Sequence record: NC_048845.1
Strand: one strand, 5' to 3'
From: Escherichia phage flopper
DNA: 52,092 bases
Made by a program: the position numbers and the translations under genes
The notes under the pieces: model-generated
Databases searched by the model: none
What the model was told of the DNA's origin: nothing
Seen by the model: the letters and a program-made list of their open reading frames with translations, nothing else
Shown here: positions 4,566 through 50,143 of the stretch, in pieces
Position numbering within the stretch: position 1 is the first letter of the stretch
Layout of the letters: each line of letters begins with the position of its first letter

Positions 4566-4580
4566 AAGTTGTTATTCACA

Positions 4581-4597
4581 CTCAACTAATGTTAGAT
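4581..4597 (-). promoter_or_regulatory. conserved intergenic motif copy
   Basis: CTCAACTAATGTTAGAT 16 nt upstream of the start at 4565. Confidence 0.35.
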
Positions 4598-7336: not shown

Positions 7337-7530
7337 TTTATTCTCCTAAGTTAAAGAAAACTCCCTACAGAACGATTGTGGAGGTCTTGTCTTACCTCAA
7401 TCCACCTTAAAGTTGTAGGGAGTATGTGACACAGCAAGTGCCGAAGAACTACAATGATTAGCTTGGAGACATAATCTCTCTAAAATCTGTCACACAATTT
7501 CAGCAGAGTTTACAGAGATTTGGTCTTATT

Positions 7531-8360
7531 CACATGCAACTAATGATAAATGGACATGCTTAATTGCAACTAATTCATCTGCCAAATAGACGAATTTTGT
7601 CACAATTAAACATGCGTCATTAATTACAGGTTTACTCCCACACTTAACGTATTTGGCACATTAAGATTGGAGCAAGCAGGTACGGAAAACCGACCATGTA
7701 CAGCATAATAAAACTAATTAAATAAAGGGTTTTATCCCAATATTGTCACAATATTACATGCGATGATAAAGCCTTCGCTTGGCTGGAAGCCAGTATTCAT
7801 GCGGGTTGCAAGAATATTGGGTCAATACTGATACAGCTATTACATGCGAAATTGGCACAAATACTGTTACAAAATTAACATGCCAGATTGGTAGACGATT
7901 GTATCTTCGAGGTGATTAGTCCTCTAACAATTCTGCCACATTCCAACATGCCAATTTGTAGCAATATTTACATGCCATACTGCGACAATATTGTCACAAT
8001 ATTTGTTGCTCAAAATCGGGCGGGCTACGGGATTAGTTTCGCGGCTTTGCTCCGACTCTTCTCTTCTTTCGAATTCTGATTGAAAGAAAGAAGCATGTCC
8101 AAAAGTTCCAATATTACAAAAGTTATCTCCCGGCTTGTGGGTGGGCCTTTATAATAGGAGATGGAGCAATATTGTCGCAATTGAACATGCTTTAGTTGAA
8201 GAACAGTTTCGGATGATAATCCTACTTCACACATGGTTGCTGGAACTTTGTCCGGCCAAAGACAGGGAGTTCAATGATTGCCACATCATTACAACACTGT
8301 ATGTTTAGTTGACATGCTGAAATGTTTCTAGAATGATTTCAACATGACATGCGGAATACT
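7531..8360. repeat. cluster of at least 12 ACATGC half-site repeats in a non-coding region (candidate origin/regulatory region)
   Basis: Plus-strand ACATGC (often as ttACATGC / aACATGCc) recurs about 12 times in ~830 bp, plus aatattgtcacaatatt-type elements and a hairpin cttctttc-N11-gaaagaag near 8058-8095. Confidence 0.5.
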
Positions 8361-8381
8361 TCTCCGTATTCTGTTACTTCA

Positions 8382-8402
8382 CATCCAACTAATGTTACAG
8401 AT
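8382..8402 (-). promoter_or_regulatory. conserved intergenic motif copy at the edge of the ACATGC-rich region
   Basis: CATCCAACTAATGTTACAGAT. Confidence 0.35.
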
Positions 8403-8469
8403 GGCTACAATATTGAAGCCAGCTCTAAGATTAATTAGAACAAAAATAGGGAGCCGAAGCTCCCAAGTA

Positions 8470-8694
8470 TCAGAACGGTATCTCTGTATCAAAGTATCCA
8501 GAATTGTGTAGGAATGAGTGCAATAGTACATGCGACTCTTGTTTATATTCTGCTAACAATTCTAAGAAGTCTTTAGTCTCCTCCACTGTAGGACGAGATA
8601 AATTACTCATATCACAGGTGTGATGAGGATTGAAACAGTTTTCGATTTGATTGATTTGTTGAGTATTCATTGTAGTCTCCAAGTTTGTGGTCAT
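8470..8694 (-). CDS. hypothetical protein
   Basis: 74-aa ORF immediately downstream of the RNA polymerase gene. Confidence 0.35.
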   Translation of the reverse strand: MTTNLETTMNTQQINQIENCFNPHHTCDMSNLSRPTVEETKDFLELLAEYKQESHVLLHSFLHNSGYFDTEIPF

Positions 8695-8711
8695 CCTTGA
8701 CCCAATTAATG

Positions 8712-10652
8712 TTATTGACAGAAGTAGTAAGCGTGTTCGCTCATCAGAAGCTCTTCGGTTACGATGTTCTCATGATACATCTGAATGCCACCAAGTTGCT
8801 TAGACAGATTCTCGAATTGATTGTTGGTTACGAAGATTTCAACATATGCTGCACGAATAACTTCCATCATGCGTGGAGCATCAGCTAAGCAGCAACGGAA
8901 ACAATCGTGGATTGAAGTAAAGCCACGAAGACCAGCTTCTTTAGCTTTAACTGCAACAGTACGAGCAACCAATGCGTCAATACCTTGGATGTAGTTAACA
9001 ACGAAGGTACGCTTGAACTCTTCTTTAGTTGGATTGGACTCACGAATGGTCCAAGGCTTATTCTCCTGAATCTGACCAAAGATGACACGAGTTTGAGAAT
9101 CAACACGAATGCTGAATGCCTCACAGATTTCACGAGATGGGAAGCAAGGCTTCATTACAACCTGACCATCAGTGTGGCGATATGTGATGTACTCTTTGCC
9201 AAGTTCAACACAACGGTTGTATGCAGCATCAGCAGCTTTCTCGATGAACATGTTAATCTTAGCACCCAATGCGTTATGGATTGCTTCTACACACAGTTCA
9301 GCAAATGCCTCAGCTTTCTCCATAGGAATCTGGAGAGCTTCTGTCATGTAGCTAATGAAGTCAGAAGAACCAGTCAATGCAGCTTTACCACCACCATATT
9401 GGATAGCCATGTATGGAGTTTTGATAAACTTACGACCAGCTTTCGGATTCAAGAATTCATCCATAATTTCAGGAGATGGCTTCATTGAAGAACGGTCTAA
9501 TAACTTCAACAGTTCACGAAGAGATAACTGGTATGGGTCAGATGCTTTAGTCTCAGAATCAACCAGACCTGTTGCACGAGCCATTTCCATGTTACCAGCA
9601 ATGAATGCCAGATATTGAGTACCAGAACATTTAGCATCTAAGCCAAAGCCTACACGAGAATCGCATTCACCTGTAGTCTCGAACTTGAACCAATCCAGAG
9701 CCAGACGAACATAAGTGAATGGCTTGGAAGGACGTTCAGCTTTAGGCATGTTCATCATGCGAGCAAGTGAACCAGCTGGATTCTGAGCAACATAAGTTAA
9801 ACGCTTAGCACTGCACCACTCACCACCGGAAATATCTTCCAGCTCTGCCATGAACATGTTGTATGCAATGGTAGTAGAACCATCTTCGTTAAACTTCTTA
9901 ACGATGTTCTCAACATTGTGAGAATACAAGCAACGAGCAAAGTCAGAGGATTGTGGGTTAGGACCAGCACATGCTACATGATACAGACGACCACGGTTAT
10001 CAGCGAAGTAGTCAGAATACAGCTTATCCTGATTCATCATTGCTACAGCATTGTTCCAAACATGAAGTTCAGTCTGGATTGCTTCTGGCACCTGCAAGCC
10101 ACCATAAGTACGTTGCTCAAGCATGGACTGGATGATGCGAACCATCTCAGTCTCCACATGGTACTCAGTATCTTGCAGGAATTCGATTGCAGCTTTCAGA
10201 GTTTTGGATGGCTTAACTTTGCCACCTTTAACGAAAGGCTTGCGACGAGATTCAGATGTAACACGCTCAGTGAATGGCACTGCTGTGTCTTTGGTTGTAA
10301 CCAGTTCAACCCATGTATCAGTTTGTTGGAATGACTTGTCTTCGTTCATGGTGATGAATCCAAAGTGCTTAGCCAAACCAATGAGGTTGATAGCTGGGTC
10401 AACATAGTGCATTGCTTTCAAATCGTTGTTATAACGGTTGGCATCAGCAATAGAAGCAGAAGCCAGCTCAACCATCGCGATGGCAGGAACAACGTCATCA
10501 CGAGTGAAAGACGTCATCATCTTGAAGATGGCTAAGGCAGCAATAGCACAAGTCTGTGGCTGCATATAGTTCTGTTTCTCTTTGGCACGATATACCAGAG
10601 CAGTGATAGCAGGAACAACGGATTTGATAGTTTGAGTGGTGATAGTAGTCAT
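8712..10652 (-). CDS. single-subunit (T7-like) DNA-directed RNA polymerase, short form
   Basis: 646 aa with motif A-like DAKCSGTQYLAFIAG, motif B-like RKFIKTPYMAIQYGGG and motif C-like IHDCFRCCLAD; GGAG RBS 8 nt upstream of the ATG. Confidence 0.8.
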   Translation of the reverse strand: MTTITTQTIKSVVPAITALVYRAKEKQNYMQPQTCAIAALAIFKMMTSFTRDDVVPAIAMVELASASIADANRYNNDLKAMHYVDPAINLIGLAKHFGFITMNEDKSFQQTDTWVELVTTKDTAVPFTERVTSESRRKPFVKGGKVKPSKTLKAAIEFLQDTEYHVETEMVRIIQSMLEQRTYGGLQVPEAIQTELHVWNNAVAMMNQDKLYSDYFADNRGRLYHVACAGPNPQSSDFARCLYSHNVENIVKKFNEDGSTTIAYNMFMAELEDISGGEWCSAKRLTYVAQNPAGSLARMMNMPKAERPSKPFTYVRLALDWFKFETTGECDSRVGFGLDAKCSGTQYLAFIAGNMEMARATGLVDSETKASDPYQLSLRELLKLLDRSSMKPSPEIMDEFLNPKAGRKFIKTPYMAIQYGGGKAALTGSSDFISYMTEALQIPMEKAEAFAELCVEAIHNALGAKINMFIEKAADAAYNRCVELGKEYITYRHTDGQVVMKPCFPSREICEAFSIRVDSQTRVIFGQIQENKPWTIRESNPTKEEFKRTFVVNYIQGIDALVARTVAVKAKEAGLRGFTSIHDCFRCCLADAPRMMEVIRAAYVEIFVTNNQFENLSKQLGGIQMYHENIVTEELLMSEHAYYFCQ

Positions 10653-10722
10653 TTGTAAGTCTCCAAGATTGTGTATGATTTAACTGAAACGGATTATAAT
10701 AGCGTAGCCATTACACAATTCA

Positions 10723-10740
10723 CAACCAACTAATATCACA
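10723..10740 (-). promoter_or_regulatory. conserved intergenic motif copy (candidate phage-RNAP promoter) upstream of the RNAP gene
   Basis: caACCAACTAATatcaca matches the repeated cacATCCAACTAATGTTtCAGA family. Confidence 0.35.
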
Positions 10741-10899
10741 AACCTGTGCCATTGTTACAACAGCACGGAGACTTTGACCTTGACTCATAAGCGAAGCGCC
10801 TAACTTGGTGTTATCATTAAGCCGATAGGCTGTAGAAAAAGTTGGGTAGGGACCGTATTTTAAGTCCGATAGGACGTTGGGCTTCCCCTCCTCGCCGCC

Positions 10900-11115
10900 T
10901 CAAAAAATAAAAATTAATATTGCCACAATTCTAGTCTCGTTAATATTGAAACAATTTGAGTCTCATTAATTCTGTAGCAATATTGAAAATAAAAAAAAAA
11001 ATTATAAAAAAAAATTATTTCATAGTCGGACTTCTGTTCGAACAAATTTCGGCGAGATACAGCTGACCGACCATGAACGAATTTCTATCCAGGTACAGTT
11101 GACCGACCATGTACC
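10900..11115. repeat. A-tract plus 13-bp direct repeats between nrdB and the RNAP gene
   Basis: aaaaaaaaaattataaaaaaaaattattt (about 10981-11010); tgaccgaccatg x2 (about 11063-11075 and 11100-11112); tagcaatattg elements. Confidence 0.45.
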
Positions 11116-11259
11116 ATTTGGTTTTAACTTTACGCATTCCTAATATTACTCTTAATATTGTAGCAATATTGGGAATAAATAAATATTTAATTTACTTGTT
11201 TTATTCTAGTTCAAAGAGAAACGACGCTAACGCATCGAATCTCTTCTCACATTTAATCG

Positions 11260-12360
11260 TTAAAGCTCAAATCCACCCAGAGCATTGGTGTCCACTTCGG
11301 AATCAATCTGCCCAACAAGGTACGAACTAATCTCCGTTTCTTGTGGAGCAACCTGTACAGCATCCGAATTCAACCATGCGTTAATCCAAGGAATCGGGTT
11401 AGTAGCACCTTTGAATGGAGCATCCAATCCAACTGCTTGCATACGAATATTTGTGATATATTCCACATATCCGCACAGAATTTGCTTGTTTAAGCCAATC
11501 ATTGAGCCATCTTTGAACAAATAATCAGCCCAATCTTTCTCTTGTTGGGCCACATTTTCGAACATTAGTTGGCATTCTTGGCGACATTCTTTAGCAATTT
11601 CGGCCATTTCTGGGTCATCAACACCACTTGCAAGAAGGTTCAGCATGTGTTGAGTTCCGGTCAAATGGAGTGCTTCATCACGAGCAATTAGGCGAATAAT
11701 CTTGGCATTTCCTTCCATTAACTTGCGTTCAGCGAAGGCAAATGAGCAAGCAAAACTGACGTAAAAGCGAATTGCTTCCAGCGCATTAATGGACATGAGG
11801 CATAAATACAGCTTCTTCTTAAGCTCACGAAGAGAAACTTTATCTTCATGCAGATGCCACATGGAAGTTAGATGTTGAAGCTCGTCATAATATTGGGAGA
11901 TGCCGATTGCACGCATTTTAATGTGCTCATTCTCCACAATTTCATCGAAAATTACACTTGGGTCTGTCACGATATTACGGATAATATGCGTGTAAGAGCG
12001 AGAGTGAATTGTCTCTGAGAATGACCAAGTTTCAATCCAAGTTTCCAGTTCAGGAATGCTCACAATTGGTAGCAAAACTGTAGTTGGTCCACGTCCCTGA
12101 ATGGAATCAAGGAGGATTTGATAGCGCAAGTTGCTTGTGAAGATGTGCTTCTCGCATTCAGGCAGACCAGCATAGTCAATTCGGTCCTGACTAACATCAA
12201 CCTCTTCAGGTCGCCAAAAGAATGATAACTGCTTCTCAATTAACTTCTCGAAGATGCTATACTTCTGTTGGTCGTATCGAGCAACGTTAACGTTCTGACC
12301 AAAGAACATTGGTTCTAATAGTTGGTTATTCTTGGTTTGTGAAAAGGTAGTGTAAGCCAT
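11260..12360 (-). CDS. nrdB: ribonucleotide reductase class Ia small subunit (R2)
   Basis: 366 aa closely resembling enterobacterial NrdB along its length (by recollection; identity not computed); ATG overlaps the upstream stop as TAATG. Confidence 0.9.
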
Positions 12361-34684: not shown

Positions 34685-34908
34685 TATTTCTTCCTTAGAA
34701 TAGTTCCATTACCCTTAACAATTTGAATGTTGTCGGAGGTGTGGAGTCGCAGATTTGACTCGTGCTTTAACTTAACACAGTCGCTCTCTGTGGTAGAAAC
34801 TGCCTCAACCACGCACAAAATGTTTCCTTCCAAATCTTGAATCTGGAAGGAATTGTTCTTGCGTGAGCGGGCATCTAATCGAGTGATAACCGCCATATTT
34901 ACATCCAT
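34684..34908 (-). CDS. hypothetical protein
   Basis: 74-aa ORF between terminase and portal. Confidence 0.4.
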   Translation of the reverse strand: MDVNMAVITRLDARSRKNNSFQIQDLEGNILCVVEAVSTTESDCVKLKHESNLRLHTSDNIQIVKGNGTILRKK

Positions 34909-36944
34909 GCGGAGTAGTTGGCACTTGGGCCAGAGAATTCGATTGCAACCATATCTGAAACGTTATCGACACAATCGTCGTGTCCAGTACCACTACCCAA
35001 AGAAGTGAATCCAAGTATTTCACGTCTAACATGGTCAATGTGTTCATGACCAGCAGGGAAGAATATTCTCTTTTGCGAGAAATATGGGATTGCGTTAAGG
35101 AATCGAGTTACCTTGTCATTACCATTGATGCCATCACGAGGCAGCGGTAAAACTCGGACACTCCCATCTCTAATAAATTGTTGATTCAAGAATTGTCCAG
35201 CAGACTTGTCTTCCATGTACAGTGCACGAGGAATACAACCTACACACTTCAAATCCAACTTGTTGCATTTGTTCCAGAAGTCGATGATAGCAGTCTTGAG
35301 TTCTGGAGTTTCGAACTTACCGAGCATAATATCTAAACAATAAACATCACGCTCTTTAGTCACGCCCCAATGCTTAAGGACCGAATAATCAGAATAGGAT
35401 TTGGCAGTTGATGCCGTATCCGCTGTAATAAAACTTCTGACTATGCGACTTCTGTCGAAAACGTCTGGTTCATACTCTTGCCACCAATCTTCTTTGATAA
35501 GGCCGTGGCCTTGTGCAGATGGGTCGCCAGCATACTGTGAATTGTATGTATATGGGTTAGACTCTTTCATTGCCTCCAGAGATTCTAAACTCTTACGTGA
35601 AGGCCATAATGCAGACTTCTCTTCCTTCCTGTTCAAATTGTACAGAATGGGAATAGCATGAGTGTAGTTCTGCTTCTTGATTAACTTATCATACCATTCA
35701 GCACTTCCAACGCCCTTCTCAATAATCGCTGGGATATTGAGATAATGGTATTTGTCGGAAGAGCCGCCACGGAGTATGTAACCAACTAAATCCTGGTCAT
35801 GAACTCGCTGCATGATGATAACCATTGGTGTACGGGCACACTTAATTTGGTTTCCGTACGAATCAGTTATGCAACCATCGTTGGCAAGACGGGACATAAA
35901 GGTGTTATCAAATCGGTCGTTGATTTCTGCTCGAACTGTGTCAGAGTAGGCATCTTTTGGTTTGATAACGTCATCCACCACGAAACAACCGGAGTATTTT
36001 GCAACAAGAAGTCCAGCACCTTTACCAGTCAGCTTACCACCAGTAGGTACTGCGTGCATAACTCCAGCTTTGGTTGTACCCCAGCGCTCAAGTGAACGTT
36101 TGTTGGGGTCGATTCTCACCTTCGGAAATATGCGTTGGAACAGTGGGTCCATCATTACAGCACGGATGTAACCACTCGATTCAAGAACAACGTCTTCTGC
36201 ATACGAGGTGATAATGTTATGGCTTGATTCATTGTGGCAAAATGAATACAAGGGCAATGCAATACTCATGAGCTGAGTCTTAGAGTGTCGTGGAGGAATG
36301 GTCACTATTAAGCGGTCAATCTCACCATCAACAACCTTTTGACCAACACTGAATATTACATCGTGAAAGTCTTGTGCTTGAAATGGAAATCCCATCTGAA
36401 TATGGAACTGCCATTTACCAAAGGCTTCGAAACTTTTCATCAAGATTTTGCGAACACGCTCTGCAACCTTGGCAGGGATTACAGTTGGGTCCACATTGTG
36501 TGGGTCATGCAGAATCTTGTCTACAAGTTCCTCGGTGTTATCATGCTCCGAGTTTGGCTCCTCTAATGTGGAACCTGCAACACGGTCAGTAACACCTGCT
36601 TGAATACCTTTCTTCAACTCATCTGCATAGGCAGTTGAGTCTTTCCTGTCGCCAGAGCGAAGACGCTCAAGTTGTGCTCTGAAAACGGAACGCAGTACAG
36701 CATCGTTTTCAAGACCCTGGCCTTCTAACTCTGCTTGAATTTGTTCTTCATAGCTGTCAACTATTGCAGTATTTTCTGAAATATATCGACGGAGCAATGG
36801 CAAAGATAGAATACAGAATCTTTCTCTTGAGACTTTTAATACGTCACCGTAGTGTTTGGCAAGATACGAGGCTACTGTATCATTAAACTCCGGCCCGAGG
36901 TCATCAGTCTTTGACATTGATTCGTTCTCTTTGTTTTTAATCAC
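34899..36944 (-). CDS. terminase large subunit
   Basis: 681 aa with ATPase-like region (IPPRHSKTQ) and C-terminal nuclease-like region. Confidence 0.8.
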   Translation of the reverse strand: MIKNKENESMSKTDDLGPEFNDTVASYLAKHYGDVLKVSRERFCILSLPLLRRYISENTAIVDSYEEQIQAELEGQGLENDAVLRSVFRAQLERLRSGDRKDSTAYADELKKGIQAGVTDRVAGSTLEEPNSEHDNTEELVDKILHDPHNVDPTVIPAKVAERVRKILMKSFEAFGKWQFHIQMGFPFQAQDFHDVIFSVGQKVVDGEIDRLIVTIPPRHSKTQLMSIALPLYSFCHNESSHNIITSYAEDVVLESSGYIRAVMMDPLFQRIFPKVRIDPNKRSLERWGTTKAGVMHAVPTGGKLTGKGAGLLVAKYSGCFVVDDVIKPKDAYSDTVRAEINDRFDNTFMSRLANDGCITDSYGNQIKCARTPMVIIMQRVHDQDLVGYILRGGSSDKYHYLNIPAIIEKGVGSAEWYDKLIKKQNYTHAIPILYNLNRKEEKSALWPSRKSLESLEAMKESNPYTYNSQYAGDPSAQGHGLIKEDWWQEYEPDVFDRSRIVRSFITADTASTAKSYSDYSVLKHWGVTKERDVYCLDIMLGKFETPELKTAIIDFWNKCNKLDLKCVGCIPRALYMEDKSAGQFLNQQFIRDGSVRVLPLPRDGINGNDKVTRFLNAIPYFSQKRIFFPAGHEHIDHVRREILGFTSLGSGTGHDDCVDNVSDMVAIEFSGPSANYSAWM

Positions 36945-37177: not shown

Positions 37178-37546
37178 TTAATATTTAATATCGCTCCAGG
37201 CCATATCTTTATAGAAATCTTCCAGATATGCTTGGGTAGAACCAACAACCACCACAATCTTAAATGGCAGTATCAGCGGCTTAACAGCCGACATTAAATC
37301 TTCGCGCCCACGCTTGATACGTTCGACGTTCTTGATTGTGTTTTCACCATGAGGAAGCATGAAAACGATAACATCCGCACCTGTTTCGTTGCGAACTGCA
37401 AGTGCACGGGTGAGATAAGTCCCGCCACCAGTGGAGGTGACATTAGACTTGAGGTATGCAAATTTAACTTTGCGGTTATTTACTACAACAGGTGAGGACA
37501 GTTTCATTTCAGATAGGTTCCAGATTAATAATCGTAGGTGTCCCAA
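37178..37546 (-). CDS. hypothetical protein
   Basis: 122-aa ORF. Confidence 0.4.
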   Translation of the reverse strand: MGHLRLLIWNLSEMKLSSPVVVNNRKVKFAYLKSNVTSTGGGTYLTRALAVRNETGADVIVFMLPHGENTIKNVERIKRGREDLMSAVKPLILPFKIVVVVGSTQAYLEDFYKDMAWSDIKY

Positions 37547-38899: not shown

Positions 38900-39647
38900 A
38901 ACTTTCCTCACTTTTGTCTGCACGTAAACGAACGAGTGACGGGAACCGGAACTTACCAGCTTCTGTCTTCTCACGATACCGAACTTGCATAATCGAACCA
39001 ACTAGCTCGTGGCGATGTTCCCACAACCACTTACGAATCAATGTGTTAGATTCTGGAACACCGTGGTCTGCCAGGCAATCTTTCACCATTGAGCCAGCAC
39101 TGCCGTAGTTCGAGGAGATAGAACCACACATACCTTTAAGAGCACCAGTACCTTCTTTCATACCAGTAATCTTAACATCGGCGTATTTATATGGTACAAT
39201 CTTCCACCACTTACCTTTTGCATCACGGACAATGATACCTTCATGACCAAGCGCCAGATATTTATCCATCAATGCCTTAAGGTTTTCATTGCTTGGGTCC
39301 TTGCACCAGCCGATGTACAAGCGTGGGTCAACAGCACCATCACTCAACTCATAAACGTTTTCTTGCGATAACGGTATGGTCGGAGGGTCGATACGCCCAA
39401 GGATAGATGAAGTCTCGTTCCAGGAACCGCGAAAGATTTCTGCATCTTTAAATTTGAGATGGTCACAGTGAGGGAGAGGTTTAGAGTTGCGGCTCCATAC
39501 CTCACCAGAAGCATTACGAATCGCTCGTATGCCGTCAATTTTGATGTACAATTCACATCGACCACGAATAAGACAGTTTGGGTCTTCCCAGTCATGTGCG
39601 TGAGCCTTTGTATATCTTGTACCGTCAGCGAGGAGCTTAATAGACAT
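38892..39647 (-). CDS. ATP-dependent DNA ligase (small phage type)
   Basis: 251 aa with adenylation motif I KIDGIR and EGIIVR/WWKI-type downstream motifs. Confidence 0.7.
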   Translation of the reverse strand: MSIKLLADGTRYTKAHAHDWEDPNCLIRGRCELYIKIDGIRAIRNASGEVWSRNSKPLPHCDHLKFKDAEIFRGSWNETSSILGRIDPPTIPLSQENVYELSDGAVDPRLYIGWCKDPSNENLKALMDKYLALGHEGIIVRDAKGKWWKIVPYKYADVKITGMKEGTGALKGMCGSISSNYGSAGSMVKDCLADHGVPESNTLIRKWLWEHRHELVGSIMQVRYREKTEAGKFRFPSLVRLRADKSEESFD

Positions 39648-40161
39648 TAAGATTCTTTCTCAGGTATTCTCGGACAGCATTCTTACGTCCGATTTTGGTT
39701 TTAGGAACTGGTTCTATTTTAGCAAGATTGCACTTGGCAATTTGCTCTTCGTCAGACAATTTGGCAAATGCAATACACTTCTTCTCAATGACTGCATCAC
39801 GACGTGATACCCCATATCGCTCCATGTATGTAATAATGCCGTGACAATCTTTACACAGCAATTCCAAATCTTCTGGCTGAACCAGTAGAAGGTTGTCCAC
39901 AAAGCGGTGCAAGTCTTCCAACTTAAGGAGGCCACCAACTTGAACTTTGTGGTTTACTTCAATCTCTTTGAGCTTATACAACTTCTTGCAGTGGTAACAT
40001 TGAATGTGGAAGATTGGTTTCTTTGAGTCACCGACCTTCAATGCAATGCGTCGAGATTGTATTAGCGCGAGTTTGCTTGGGTGCTTAGACCAAACACTTC
40101 GAATAGCAGATTGGAGCCAAGATACAAACTTGGCTTCCGTTCCACAATAACCGTAAGCCAT
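39637..40161 (-). CDS. HNH endonuclease
   Basis: CYHCKK...EVNHKV...CKDCH arrangement typical of HNH nucleases. Confidence 0.65.
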   Translation of the reverse strand: MAYGYCGTEAKFVSWLQSAIRSVWSKHPSKLALIQSRRIALKVGDSKKPIFHIQCYHCKKLYKLKEIEVNHKVQVGGLLKLEDLHRFVDNLLLVQPEDLELLCKDCHGIITYMERYGVSRRDAVIEKKCIAFAKLSDEEQIAKCNLAKIEPVPKTKIGRKNAVREYLRKNLNVY

Positions 40162-42139: not shown

Positions 42140-42412
42140 TTAATCGACTTGCAACACAGCAAGACGGAAGTCATATCCAACTAATGCTTCGGTCAGCTCT
42201 TCAATTGAAGACGTTGCCGAAATTAATGTTTGGATGTTTTTGAATGTCTCATCATTAAATGCTTGAGACTGTGGGTCAGACGAAGCGAATACTTTGTCCT
42301 TAATCTTTTCAAGGAACGCCATTACAGCGTCCTTTGCAGGAACTTCGGAATCAGCAGCAAACATATGATGCTCTAATTCCTGCATATCGAAAATTGAATA
42401 TACAGTTTGCAT
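42140..42412 (-). CDS. hypothetical protein
   Basis: 90 aa; its 3' end carries a copy of the conserved motif (42175..42192). Confidence 0.4.
   Translation of the reverse strand: MQTVYSIFDMQELEHHMFAADSEVPAKDAVMAFLEKIKDKVFASSDPQSQAFNDETFKNIQTLISATSSIEELTEALVGYDFRLAVLQVD
42175..42192 (-). promoter_or_regulatory. conserved motif copy (candidate phage promoter) inside the gene end
   Basis: ATCCAACTAATGcTTCgG about 66 nt upstream of the start at 42109. Confidence 0.3.
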
Positions 42413-50042: not shown

Positions 50043-50122
50043 TTGTATATACCTTATATTGAATAGTTTTGCACGCCACGGTGACGTGACTTAGATAAAA
50101 ATTAAAGAGCCTTTCTCTTTCC

Positions 50123-50143
50123 ACATCCAACTAATGTTTCAGA
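50123..50143 (-). promoter_or_regulatory. conserved intergenic motif copy (candidate phage promoter)
   Basis: CATCCAACTAATGTTTCAGAA about 80 nt upstream of the start at 50042, preceded by an imperfect hairpin ctgattcgt-caa-acgactcag. Confidence 0.4.

Follow-up and report, generated by a model that had tools for sequence, protein, structure and literature searches.

A conserved non-coding cluster beside the predicted terminal repeat of Escherichia phage flopper, a probable DNA-processing or packaging signal

Escherichia phage flopper belongs to the family Chaseviridae and is Carltongylesvirus-like, grouping with phages of the ST32/phiEcoM-GJ1 type. The window, i.e. the whole stretch of DNA analysed here, comprises the 52,092 nucleotides of record NC_048845.1 and represents a complete, circularly closed assembly, in which all sizeable open reading frames (ORFs) lie on the minus strand. 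The region of interest is the 607-bp gap (10653-11259) between the stop codon of nrdB (11260) and the start codon of the gene for the single-subunit RNA polymerase (RNAP; 10652). Within this gap, a preliminary description had singled out the interval 10900-11115 for an A-tract and short repeats and had proposed that a genome end or early host promoters may lie there. More than 30 Chaseviridae records, including ST32, phiEcoM-GJ1, PYps23T, Mangalitsa, and JL1, match the nrdB-RNAP region at 85-92% identity, and the flopper RNAP is 100% identical to that of ST32 over the best aligned segment. An exact-protein look-up with the flopper RNAP, aimed at contigs that end at the terminus, returned no record. 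Read along the minus strand, the gap features a terminator hairpin, a palindrome, two boxes, T-tract 1, an iteron array, T-tract 2 with a GC-rich block, and a palindrome at the predicted cut site (Table 1). The hairpin has a folding energy of -21.9 kcal/mol (z = -4.9), is called by the terminator scan, and is invariant in 13 genomes; it qualifies as an intrinsic terminator and marks the end of the late operon.

The A-tract is real: the segment 10986-11016 holds 25 A in 31 nucleotides, with A11 at 10991 and A9 at 11006 being the sole homopolymers of at least eight nucleotides in the window. On the coding strand, it reads as T-tract 1, whose module of TATAAT or TATAAA followed by a T-run is found in all genera examined. 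The direct repeat TGACCGACCATG is present in exactly two copies (11064 and 11100) as described, but the copies are spaced by 36 bp from start to start instead of 37, and the exact repeat is 12 instead of 13 nucleotides long. At 83% identity it extends to 29 nucleotides (11055-11083 and 11091-11119). On the minus strand, these repeats are the two boxes of the form GGTCGGTCA(A/G)CTGTA inside 11115-11056. The tagcaatattg elements were also found as described, with TAGCAATATTG being exact at 10975 and 11161 and having one-mismatch copies at 7959 and 8164 in the ACATGC-rich region; these elements turn out to be part of a 17-bp palindrome, AATATTG-N3-CAATATT. Allowing for up to two mismatches, this palindrome (AATATTGNNNCAATATT) has 11 matches, compared with 0.30 expected, and none of 100 shuffles reaches 11. 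Its perfect copy AATATTGCTACAATATT is invariant among close relatives and present in Y2, PM1, 4HA13, Faunus, and L020. Each iteron unit is a degenerate copy of the same palindrome, and further repeats in the gap comprise a 26-nucleotide tandem (10914-10939, 10940-10965) and a 32-nucleotide repeat at 10966 and 11152. The iteron motif and the boxes do not occur elsewhere in the genome, which argues against their being general promoters. T-tract 2 and the GC-rich block are conserved across genera directly upstream of the start of the terminal repeat.

Chaseviridae genomes are linear, terminally redundant, and non-permuted, with direct terminal repeats (DTRs) of approximately 3 kb according to the ICTV profile (PMC12842549). 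A query joining the final 500 bases of the window to its first 500 aligns as a single piece in relatives; hence, the window is circularly closed with one copy of any terminal repeat collapsed and by itself gives no direct evidence of genome ends. DTR ends were compared in six relatives of five genera, namely Y2, PM1, and JL1, whose records carry both copies, and Mangalitsa, 4HA13, and Myduc, whose ends were predicted by PhageTerm. All six begin their DTR within a 6-nucleotide span of one conserved site, CCTAT^CG^GAC^TTAAAATACGGTCCC, which in the window corresponds to CCTATCGGACTTAAAATACGG at 10873-10853. The segment CCTATCGGACTTAAAATACGGTCCC at 10849-10873 matches the left DTR boundary in each of them. 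The first base of the flopper DTR would be 10868 (JL1 and Myduc type), 10866 (Y2 and PM1 type), or 10863 (PhageTerm type of Mangalitsa and 4HA13). The records of the latter two open with TTAAA(A)TACGGTCCC, and the record end just before reads ...CCTATCGGAC. In other genera, i.e. in Erwinia, Pectobacterium, and Aeromonas phages, blastn still picks up the gap over 10805-10931 (query 153-279). The right DTR boundary reads GAAGAGAAG/AGTCGGAGC in Mangalitsa and GAAGTC/GGAC in JL1 (the slash marks the boundary), corresponding to window position 8058 or 8054. By homology, the left physical end is, therefore, very probably located at 10863-10868 on the minus strand, in or just after the palindrome GTCC-TATC-GGAC, and the right boundary at approximately 8054-8058. 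The proposal that a genome end lies in the nrdB-RNAP gap is thereby supported; its placement at the A-tract and direct repeats is not, since these features are situated outside the DTR and not upstream of the first RNAP copy. RNAP is the first gene inside the repeat in flopper as in relatives, its ATG being 211-216 bp from the predicted left end; the gene starts at position 225 of the DTR in Y2 and PM1 and at position 211 in Mangalitsa.

The arms of the cut-site palindrome covary between phages, reading CTCCC-TATC-GGGAG in PM1 and Myduc and ATCCC-TATC-GGGAT in Faunus. This palindrome and a second one of the TATC type inside the DTR keep their symmetry by two-sided changes at five pairs with double changes, which reflect few independent events; the covariation score is 0.161 versus 0.059 in shuffles, and none of 500 shuffles reaches it. 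As single-stranded DNA hairpins, the cut-site palindromes lack thermodynamic support (z = +0.7), the stems being too short, and are supported by covariation only. The motif CGGA(C/G) is found at both DTR boundaries in most relatives, as TCGGAC or TCGGGAG on the left and as GTCGGAG, GTCGGAC, GACGGAC, or ACCGGAC on the right, with Y2 and PM1 deviating. Ahead of the right boundary stands an imperfect inverted repeat, CTTCTTTCTTTC...GAAAGAAGAGAAG, with a DNA folding energy of -9.6 kcal/mol (z = -1.1). A pattern scan of viral contigs for the cut site returned 50 matches, of which 11 are real, as judged by the presence of the second TATCGG palindrome, and the others are chance matches. Public contigs that stop near the left boundary end in poly-T runs and not at the cut.

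With high confidence as to its location relative to the DTR, the flagged interval can be assigned to a family-conserved non-coding cluster of approximately 400 bp (10876-11250) just outside the predicted left boundary. The predicted left end lies about 35 bp below the interval, and the flagged features are 35-250 bp away from it. In virion DNA, they precede the right-hand RNAP copy only; being outside the DTR, they are not upstream of the left-end RNAP copy, which is the first on the injected DNA. The palindromes bracket the repeat: nine of the 11 matches flank the DTR, four at 49-287 bp outside the left boundary and five at 54-302 bp outside the right one, and the remaining two are weak matches elsewhere. 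The GGTCGGT boxes are located 199 and 235 bp outside the left boundary and 362 bp beyond the right one. In the six phages scanned, the first right-flank palindrome follows the right boundary at 45 to 73 bp, and the same bracket is present in Mangalitsa, JL1, 4HA13, Y2, and PM1, where the right-flank box lies at about 350 to 365 bp (exact GGTCGGT; a variant in 4HA13). In Myduc, the left box ACATAGTCAGTCGACTGTGG and the right box ATGTGGTCAGATTTCTGTGG have diverged in parallel, with GTCGG changed to GTCAG and GTACC to GTGG; this parallel change suggests that one factor reads both.

All gap elements are conserved in 12 close relatives and are found in diverged form in five other genera. Y2, PM1, 4HA13, Faunus, Myduc, and two metagenomic genomes share the same element order upstream of the cut—palindrome, box, TATAA(T/A) with T-run, iterons, T-run, GC block, cut—with not every element being present everywhere. 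The gene upstream of the cluster is nrdB in flopper, the endolysin gene in Y2, PM1, 4HA13, and Myduc, and a small ORF otherwise. Since the order is kept despite these different neighbours, the cluster travels with the repeat boundary and not with nrdB. The iterons are genus-specific in sequence and keep their position: TTAACGGCTC...CAATATT in PM1, GATTCG repeats in Y2, and TTAAGTCGTAAG in Myduc. Among close relatives, the iteron copy number varies from 1 to 3 and the T-run length from 6 to 11; TH24 has lost one box unit by an exact 36-bp deletion, and other genera carry one or two box copies. The module of T-tract and GC block is duplicated in EcoM1, MLP1, TH33, and Bp10.

Several public sequences break inside T-runs in or next to the two T-tracts, namely PO103-1 (ON778463), which has poly-T stretches of tens of T at either end of its record, FXie-2024a, and the Logan contigs L092 and L093. 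These breaks are assembly artefacts and were rejected as evidence for termini. The record starts or stops of TH53, TH25, and SKA49 also map near T-tract 1. The homopolymers of the gap are assembly break points and may also be genuinely variable in length.

Table 1. Features of the nrdB-RNAP junction and of both flanks of the predicted terminal repeat of flopper, with DTR boundaries of relatives (slash, boundary)
Feature	Window position, or boundary in relative	Strand	Basis or remark
NrdB ORF	11260-12360	-	Upstream neighbours: endolysin, holin, and tail-fibre genes
Terminator-like hairpin with T-rich tail	11214-11248	-	Immediately after nrdB stop; RNA fold, terminator scan
17-bp palindrome AATATTGCTACAATATT	11154-11170	.	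No mismatches to AATATTG-N3-CAATATT; holds one tagcaatattg element
Box copy 1, GGTACATGGTCGGTCAACTGTACC	11092-11115	-	Direct repeat on coding strand; core GGTCGGTCAACTGT conserved across genera
Box copy 2, GTTCATGGTCGGTCAGCTGTATC	11056-11078	-	36 bp from copy 1
T-tract 1 (A-tract on plus strand), TTTTTTTTTATAATTTTTTTTTTTATTTT, also written TTTTTTTTTATAATTTTTTTTTTT	10986-11014	-	Homopolymer runs
Iteron array	10914-10985	-	Degenerate unit 10965-10985 and two GAGACTNNAATTGTNNCAATATTAA units, 10940-10964 and 10914-10938
T-tract 2, TTTTTATTTTTTG (10901-10913), then GC-rich block, AGGCGGCGAGGAGGGGAAGCCCAAC (10876-10900)	10876-10913	-	Conservation
Palindrome GTCC-TATC-GGAC (10864-10875), carrying the predicted left end	10863-10875	-	Homology
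Second palindrome, AGCC-TATC-GGCT	10820-10831	.	Approximately 40 bp inside DTR; sequence
Phage-promoter-like motif ATTAGTTGGTTGTGAA (10719-10734), overlapping TTGTGA-18-TATTAT (10696-10725)	10696-10734	-	Inside DTR, 45-80 bp upstream of RNAP ATG
RNAP, single-subunit RNA polymerase, 646 aa	8712-10652	-	Pfam RNA_pol
Predicted DTR, approximately 2.8 kb, with RNAP gene and small ORFs	8054-10868	-	Boundaries transferred by homology from six relatives
Right-flank palindrome cluster with two perfect copies, AATATTGTGACAATATT	7739-8003	.	54-302 bp beyond right DTR boundary
Right-flank box GTACATGGTCGGTTTTCCGTACC, preceded by AT-rich stretch	7679-7701	-	362 bp beyond right DTR boundary
Y2 DTR, exact repeat of 2608 bp	Left: CCTGTCG/GACTTAATAATACGGTCCC (CCTGTCG/GAC)		Record ends compared
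PM1 DTR, exact repeat of 2665 bp	Left: CCTATCG/GGAGATAAATACGGTCCC (CCTATCG/GGAG)		Record ends compared
JL1 DTR, exact repeat of 2995 bp	Left: CCTAT/CGGACTTAAATACGGTCCC (CCTAT/CGGAC)		Record ends compared
Mangalitsa DTR, 3234 bp; 4HA13 DTR, 3120 bp	Start: CGGAC/TTAAA		PhageTerm; PMC6753284, PMC9699118
Myduc DTR, 3202 bp	Opens CGGGAGAGTAGGAGTCCC after ...CCTCCCTAT; CCTAT/CGGGAG		PhageTerm; PMC6872899

Taken together, the flagged region probably does not hold the promoter of the first gene but serves a known phage family as a signal for DNA processing or packaging. The positions of the elements go with both end-forming cuts, and we therefore favour their involvement in concatemer processing and packaging. 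The best overall explanation—a conserved cluster outside a DTR of approximately 2.8 kb that provides cis-acting processing and packaging sites—is held with about as much doubt as belief, the doubt being slightly the greater. Somewhat more tentative is its functional core, in which the cluster would represent cis-acting sites for concatemer processing and packaging initiation, i.e. a pac-like recognition region. As in a pac-like region of the T7 type, repeated elements adjoin the end-forming cuts and flank the terminal repeat, an arrangement also conserved among the other genera examined. The palindromes or iterons and the GGTCGGT boxes, present on either outer flank of the DTR, would be bound by one or more phage proteins, possibly the small terminase or an accessory factor. 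Rigidity, bending, or ease of deformation would be contributed by the T/A tracts, and the terminase would make its cuts 35-50 bp downstream, where CGGA(C/G)-containing sites mark the two DTR boundaries. More speculatively, the palindromes and boxes could constitute two halves of a bipartite end-defining signal, an extension that we regard as unlikely on present evidence. Here, one phage protein would bind both flanks of a single repeat copy in the concatemer and bring together the two CGGA(C/G) cut sites, which are about 2.8 kb apart; staggered cuts and duplication of the repeat would then yield exact long DTRs.

Several points weigh against assigning a packaging function. The evidence does not separate protein binding for packaging from binding for the control of replication or transcription. 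The loss of one box copy in TH24 and the variable number of iterons imply that individual copies are dispensable. Since the two T-runs lack helical phasing, they give no demonstration of intrinsic bending. The search for a DNA-binding protein or small terminase identified none, and neither a 122-aa ORF nor ten early ORFs had a Pfam, PHROG-function, or PDB match. The terminus of flopper is transferred by homology only, with the window itself being a collapsed circular assembly, and for PYps23T, the closest experimentally studied relative, a DTR of 2339 bp has been reported that starts at the equivalent of window position 10724/10725. The 122-aa ORF (37178-37546, minus strand) is located upstream of TerL (34899-36944), matches only a PHROG of unknown function, and is a small-terminase candidate by position. 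TerL itself has no detectable match to any solved terminase. A by-eye comparison of the palindrome with consensus sequences of CRP, LexA, Fur, ArgR, DnaA, and IHF gave no convincing match.

Of the alternatives, an early control region survives best and is still improbable. Host sigma-70 promoters, maybe with the palindromes as operators, would in this case drive RNAP. In the phiEcoM-GJ1 record, the homologous place carries the annotation of a putative sigma-70 promoter (TTGACG-N17/18-TATTAT), and the homologous candidate scores 9-10 of 12 in seven of 13 relatives. The best conserved version, TT(G/A)ACG-18-TATTAT, ends near 10914 and matches the consensus at 10 of 12 positions in GJ1, TH29, and Ecp_YSF. 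Perfect 17-bp palindromes are typical of operator sites, and a TATAAT hexamer is found within T-tract 1 in all genera. Moreover, in the Mangalitsa/JL1-type group, the part of the DTR upstream of RNAP yielded no convincing host promoter that is conserved, so that early RNAP transcription needs another source there. Against this stands the position of the region, which is absent upstream of the left-end RNAP copy, so that it is not a sigma-70 early promoter upstream of the first gene on the entering DNA; its possible targets would be limited to the right-end RNAP copy and to circular or concatemeric replicative forms. The flopper version of the conserved candidate is TTAACG-16-AATATT and matches at just 8 of 12 positions, and promoter prediction gave no enrichment of sigma-70-like sites, with two found versus 2.9 expected in shuffles. 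The TATAAT of the T-tract has no usable -35 element in any genus, the region opens with a strong terminator and not with a promoter context, and the palindromes also occur beyond the right DTR boundary at a fixed offset from the cut.

The left-end RNAP copy is preceded by approximately 210 bp that hold ATTAGTTGGTTGTGAA and the sigma-70-like TTGTGA-18-TATTAT. The motif ATTAGTTGGNNGTGAA occurs in six to eight copies with up to two mismatches, always on the coding strand and in several cases just upstream of ORF starts; sites on the minus strand are 10719-10734, 8378-8393, 7529-7544, 4575-4590, 42170-42185, and 50120-50135. It is identical to the 'putative phage promoter' of the phiEcoM-GJ1 record, and one copy lies approximately 70 bp upstream of the RNAP gene. 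RNAP promoters and control signals of Chaseviridae are still unidentified according to the ICTV profile (PMC12842549), and the ST32 paper contains nothing on genome ends or promoters. Around and beyond the right DTR boundary, approximately 1 kb of gene-poor DNA (7530-8530, minus strand) carries about 13 copies of GCATGT (ACATGC on the plus strand), often as GGCATGT, interleaved with the 17-bp palindromes. This pattern is conserved in Mangalitsa, 4HA13, and Myduc, and the motif does not follow the sigma-70 consensus; the segment is probably an early promoter or control region, placed comparably to A1-A3 of T7.

Less likely again is an origin of DNA replication, composed of the iterons, an AT-rich unwinding element, and primase sites of the T7 type (5'-TGGTC/CGGTC within ATGGTCGGTC) beside the DTR, analogous to the secondary origins of T7 near phiOL and phiOR. 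The combination of an iteron array of variable copy number with an AT-rich element is indeed present (10914-10964; A11 and A9), the region holds the longest A/T runs of the genome, and the GGTCGGTC boxes contain GTC-type motifs, always on the same strand. Origins of the T7 type depend on phage promoters, however, and the left flank has no phage-promoter-like motif. Cumulative GC skew shows no inflection at the gap, and no initiator gene is adjacent, the neighbours being nrdB and RNAP. Consistent with an origin, a phage DNA polymerase and a helicase/primase have been described in relatives (PMC12842549, PMC9699118). End formation, however, accounts better for the mirrored layout, whose distances from the cuts are conserved at the two DTR boundaries.

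A third alternative concerns the end itself, which would lie at the PYps23T-type boundary ATTAGTTGGT/TGTGAA (window 10724/10725) with a DTR of approximately 2.34 kb, leaving the CCTATCGGAC site with another role; we consider this quite improbable. PYps23T is the closest relative with wet-lab end mapping by restriction digests, ligation-PCR, and direct sequencing (PMC8762354), and its record (MW147598; positions 52531 and 2339) carries an exact 2339-bp repeat with this type of boundary. The two boundaries, ...ATTAGTTGGA/CGTGAA and ...ATTAGTTGGA/TGTGAA, however, are located in two copies of the 16-nucleotide promoter-like motif. The copies in the window (10734-10719 and 8393-8378) are 2341 bp apart, the right boundary equivalent being at about 8383. 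Since template switching or recombination between them in the ligation-PCR would give such a boundary, it is judged less likely; it may be a ligation-PCR or template-switch artefact and is probably mis-assigned. The restriction data of PYps23T indicate approximately 2.5 kb of extra DNA and no precise length, whereas six other phages of five genera agree by three approaches on the CCTATCGGAC site, approximately 140 bp further out. With the PYps23T-type boundary, too, the flagged features would fall outside the DTR, and the end would stay on the same side of the interval.

The weakest alternative, very improbable, is that the region has no dedicated function and represents an AT-rich spacer with slippage-prone repeats, a second terminator of hairpin and U-run, or a small ORF: T-run length and repeat number do vary, assemblies break there, short ORFs are annotated in some records (e.g. 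PYps23T ORF081 and Mangalitsa_082), and a pairing of box copy 2 with CCGACTATG ahead of the T-run is possible (-33.2 kcal/mol over 142 nucleotides, z = -2.7), but element order and position are conserved across genera with different flanking genes. The T-tract terminator of box copy 2, CCGACTATG, and U-run was rejected as specific to the window, since the consensus fold of 11 relatives loses the hairpin and has no covarying pair. The small ORF across the boxes (11015-11137, 40 aa) was likewise rejected: a 1-nucleotide indel shifts the frame among relatives, and an AGGA stands directly against the ATG, a poor Shine-Dalgarno spacing. An Rfam search of 10500-11400 on both strands returned no match at E ≤ 1. 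The class II pause signal of T7 is ATCTGTT. A role of the box (CA[A/G]CTGTA; CATCTGTA in Faunus) as such a signal is at most a weak speculation, since the right-flank box does not carry the sequence.

The DTRs of Y2, PM1, Mangalitsa, 4HA13, Myduc, and JL1 are the closest known counterparts of the proposed flopper ends, with the same family, the same gene order, RNAP as the first gene in the DTR, and a boundary identical or near-identical to CCTATCGGACTTAAAATACGGTCCC; the flopper ends, in contrast, are predicted. For Myduc, RNAP as the first gene at the left end and a T7-like entry are already published (PMC6872899). The terminal repeat, its approximate place, and the RNAP-first idea are, thus, known for relatives, and the existence and approximate location of the terminus in flopper are in themselves not surprising. 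New with respect to the searched literature is the set of conserved elements that bracket the repeat, which constitutes a lead and not a demonstrated mechanism: the Chaseviridae papers covered give DTR lengths only and contain no flanking palindromes, boxes, iterons, or T-tracts, the primary papers on phiEcoM-GJ1, Y2, and PM1 being outside the scope of the search.

Outside the family, the concatemer junction of T7/T3 offers the nearest parallel, with a packaging signal beside the repeat. The T7 terminal repeat is bracketed on the outside by arrays of CCTAAAG-type repeats (approximately 39,600-39,760 and 175-341), similar to the flopper flanks, and the phiOR promoter (39229) lies upstream of the right repeat. 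The sequence CTATC spans cuts in both systems: T7 reads GACTA/TCTCAC and CCCT/ATCTG, with both boundaries in CTATCT, and the left site of flopper reads CCTAT/CGGAC. The pacB site and a hairpin intermediate of T7 were reportedly described by Chung and Hinkle in 1990. Maturation of T7 DNA starts at the concatemer junction and involves the phage single-subunit RNAP (PMC3276506), and phagemids need the T7 origin, pac site, and terminal repeat (PMC13236587). The T7 repeat, however, is 160 bp long, compared with approximately 2.8 kb containing a gene in flopper, and the motifs are unrelated in sequence, with 17-bp palindromes and boxes of about 20 nucleotides in flopper versus 7-nucleotide direct repeats in T7. 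Flopper is, moreover, a myovirus, unlike T7, and the packaging function of its cluster is putative. Terminase recognition regions with repeats and bent DNA are also features of lambda, where cosB has R-sites and an IHF bend, and of SPP1, where pacL carries A-tracts. In common with these, flopper has repeated motifs and A/T tracts within a few hundred bp of a sequence-specific cut; in contrast to them, its cut gives a long DTR and not cohesive ends or a headful series, and no IHF consensus was seen by eye.

For annotation, the predicted boundary fixes the opening point of the genome at 10863-10868 on the minus strand, and approximately 2.8 kb (8054-10868) are predicted to be present twice in the virion. 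Assemblies repeatedly break at the A/T tract, which has thereby influenced the start points of several GenBank records. With the mapped elements, there are now defined sites at which to study how long exact terminal repeats arise in a myovirus that has a T7-like RNAP. A bipartite signal, if true, would be a concrete mechanism for measuring out such repeats, a process poorly understood outside T7.

Two further observations concern neighbouring parts of the genome. The RNAP of the genus comes in two linked variants: a 646-aa form with a 5' leader of type A (flopper, ST32, GJ1, and PYps23T) and a 704-aa form (Bp10, JL1, and Mangalitsa). In the 704-aa group, the leader between the promoter-like motif and the GGTCAAGGTCAAAG motif is clearly of another type (10653-10770 region), which TH33 shares; this suggests that RNAP cassettes have been exchanged as modules inside the DTR. 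On the plus strand, opposite to the strand of all genes, the early region holds at 81-110 a near-consensus sigma-70 promoter, TTGACA-18-TATAAT.

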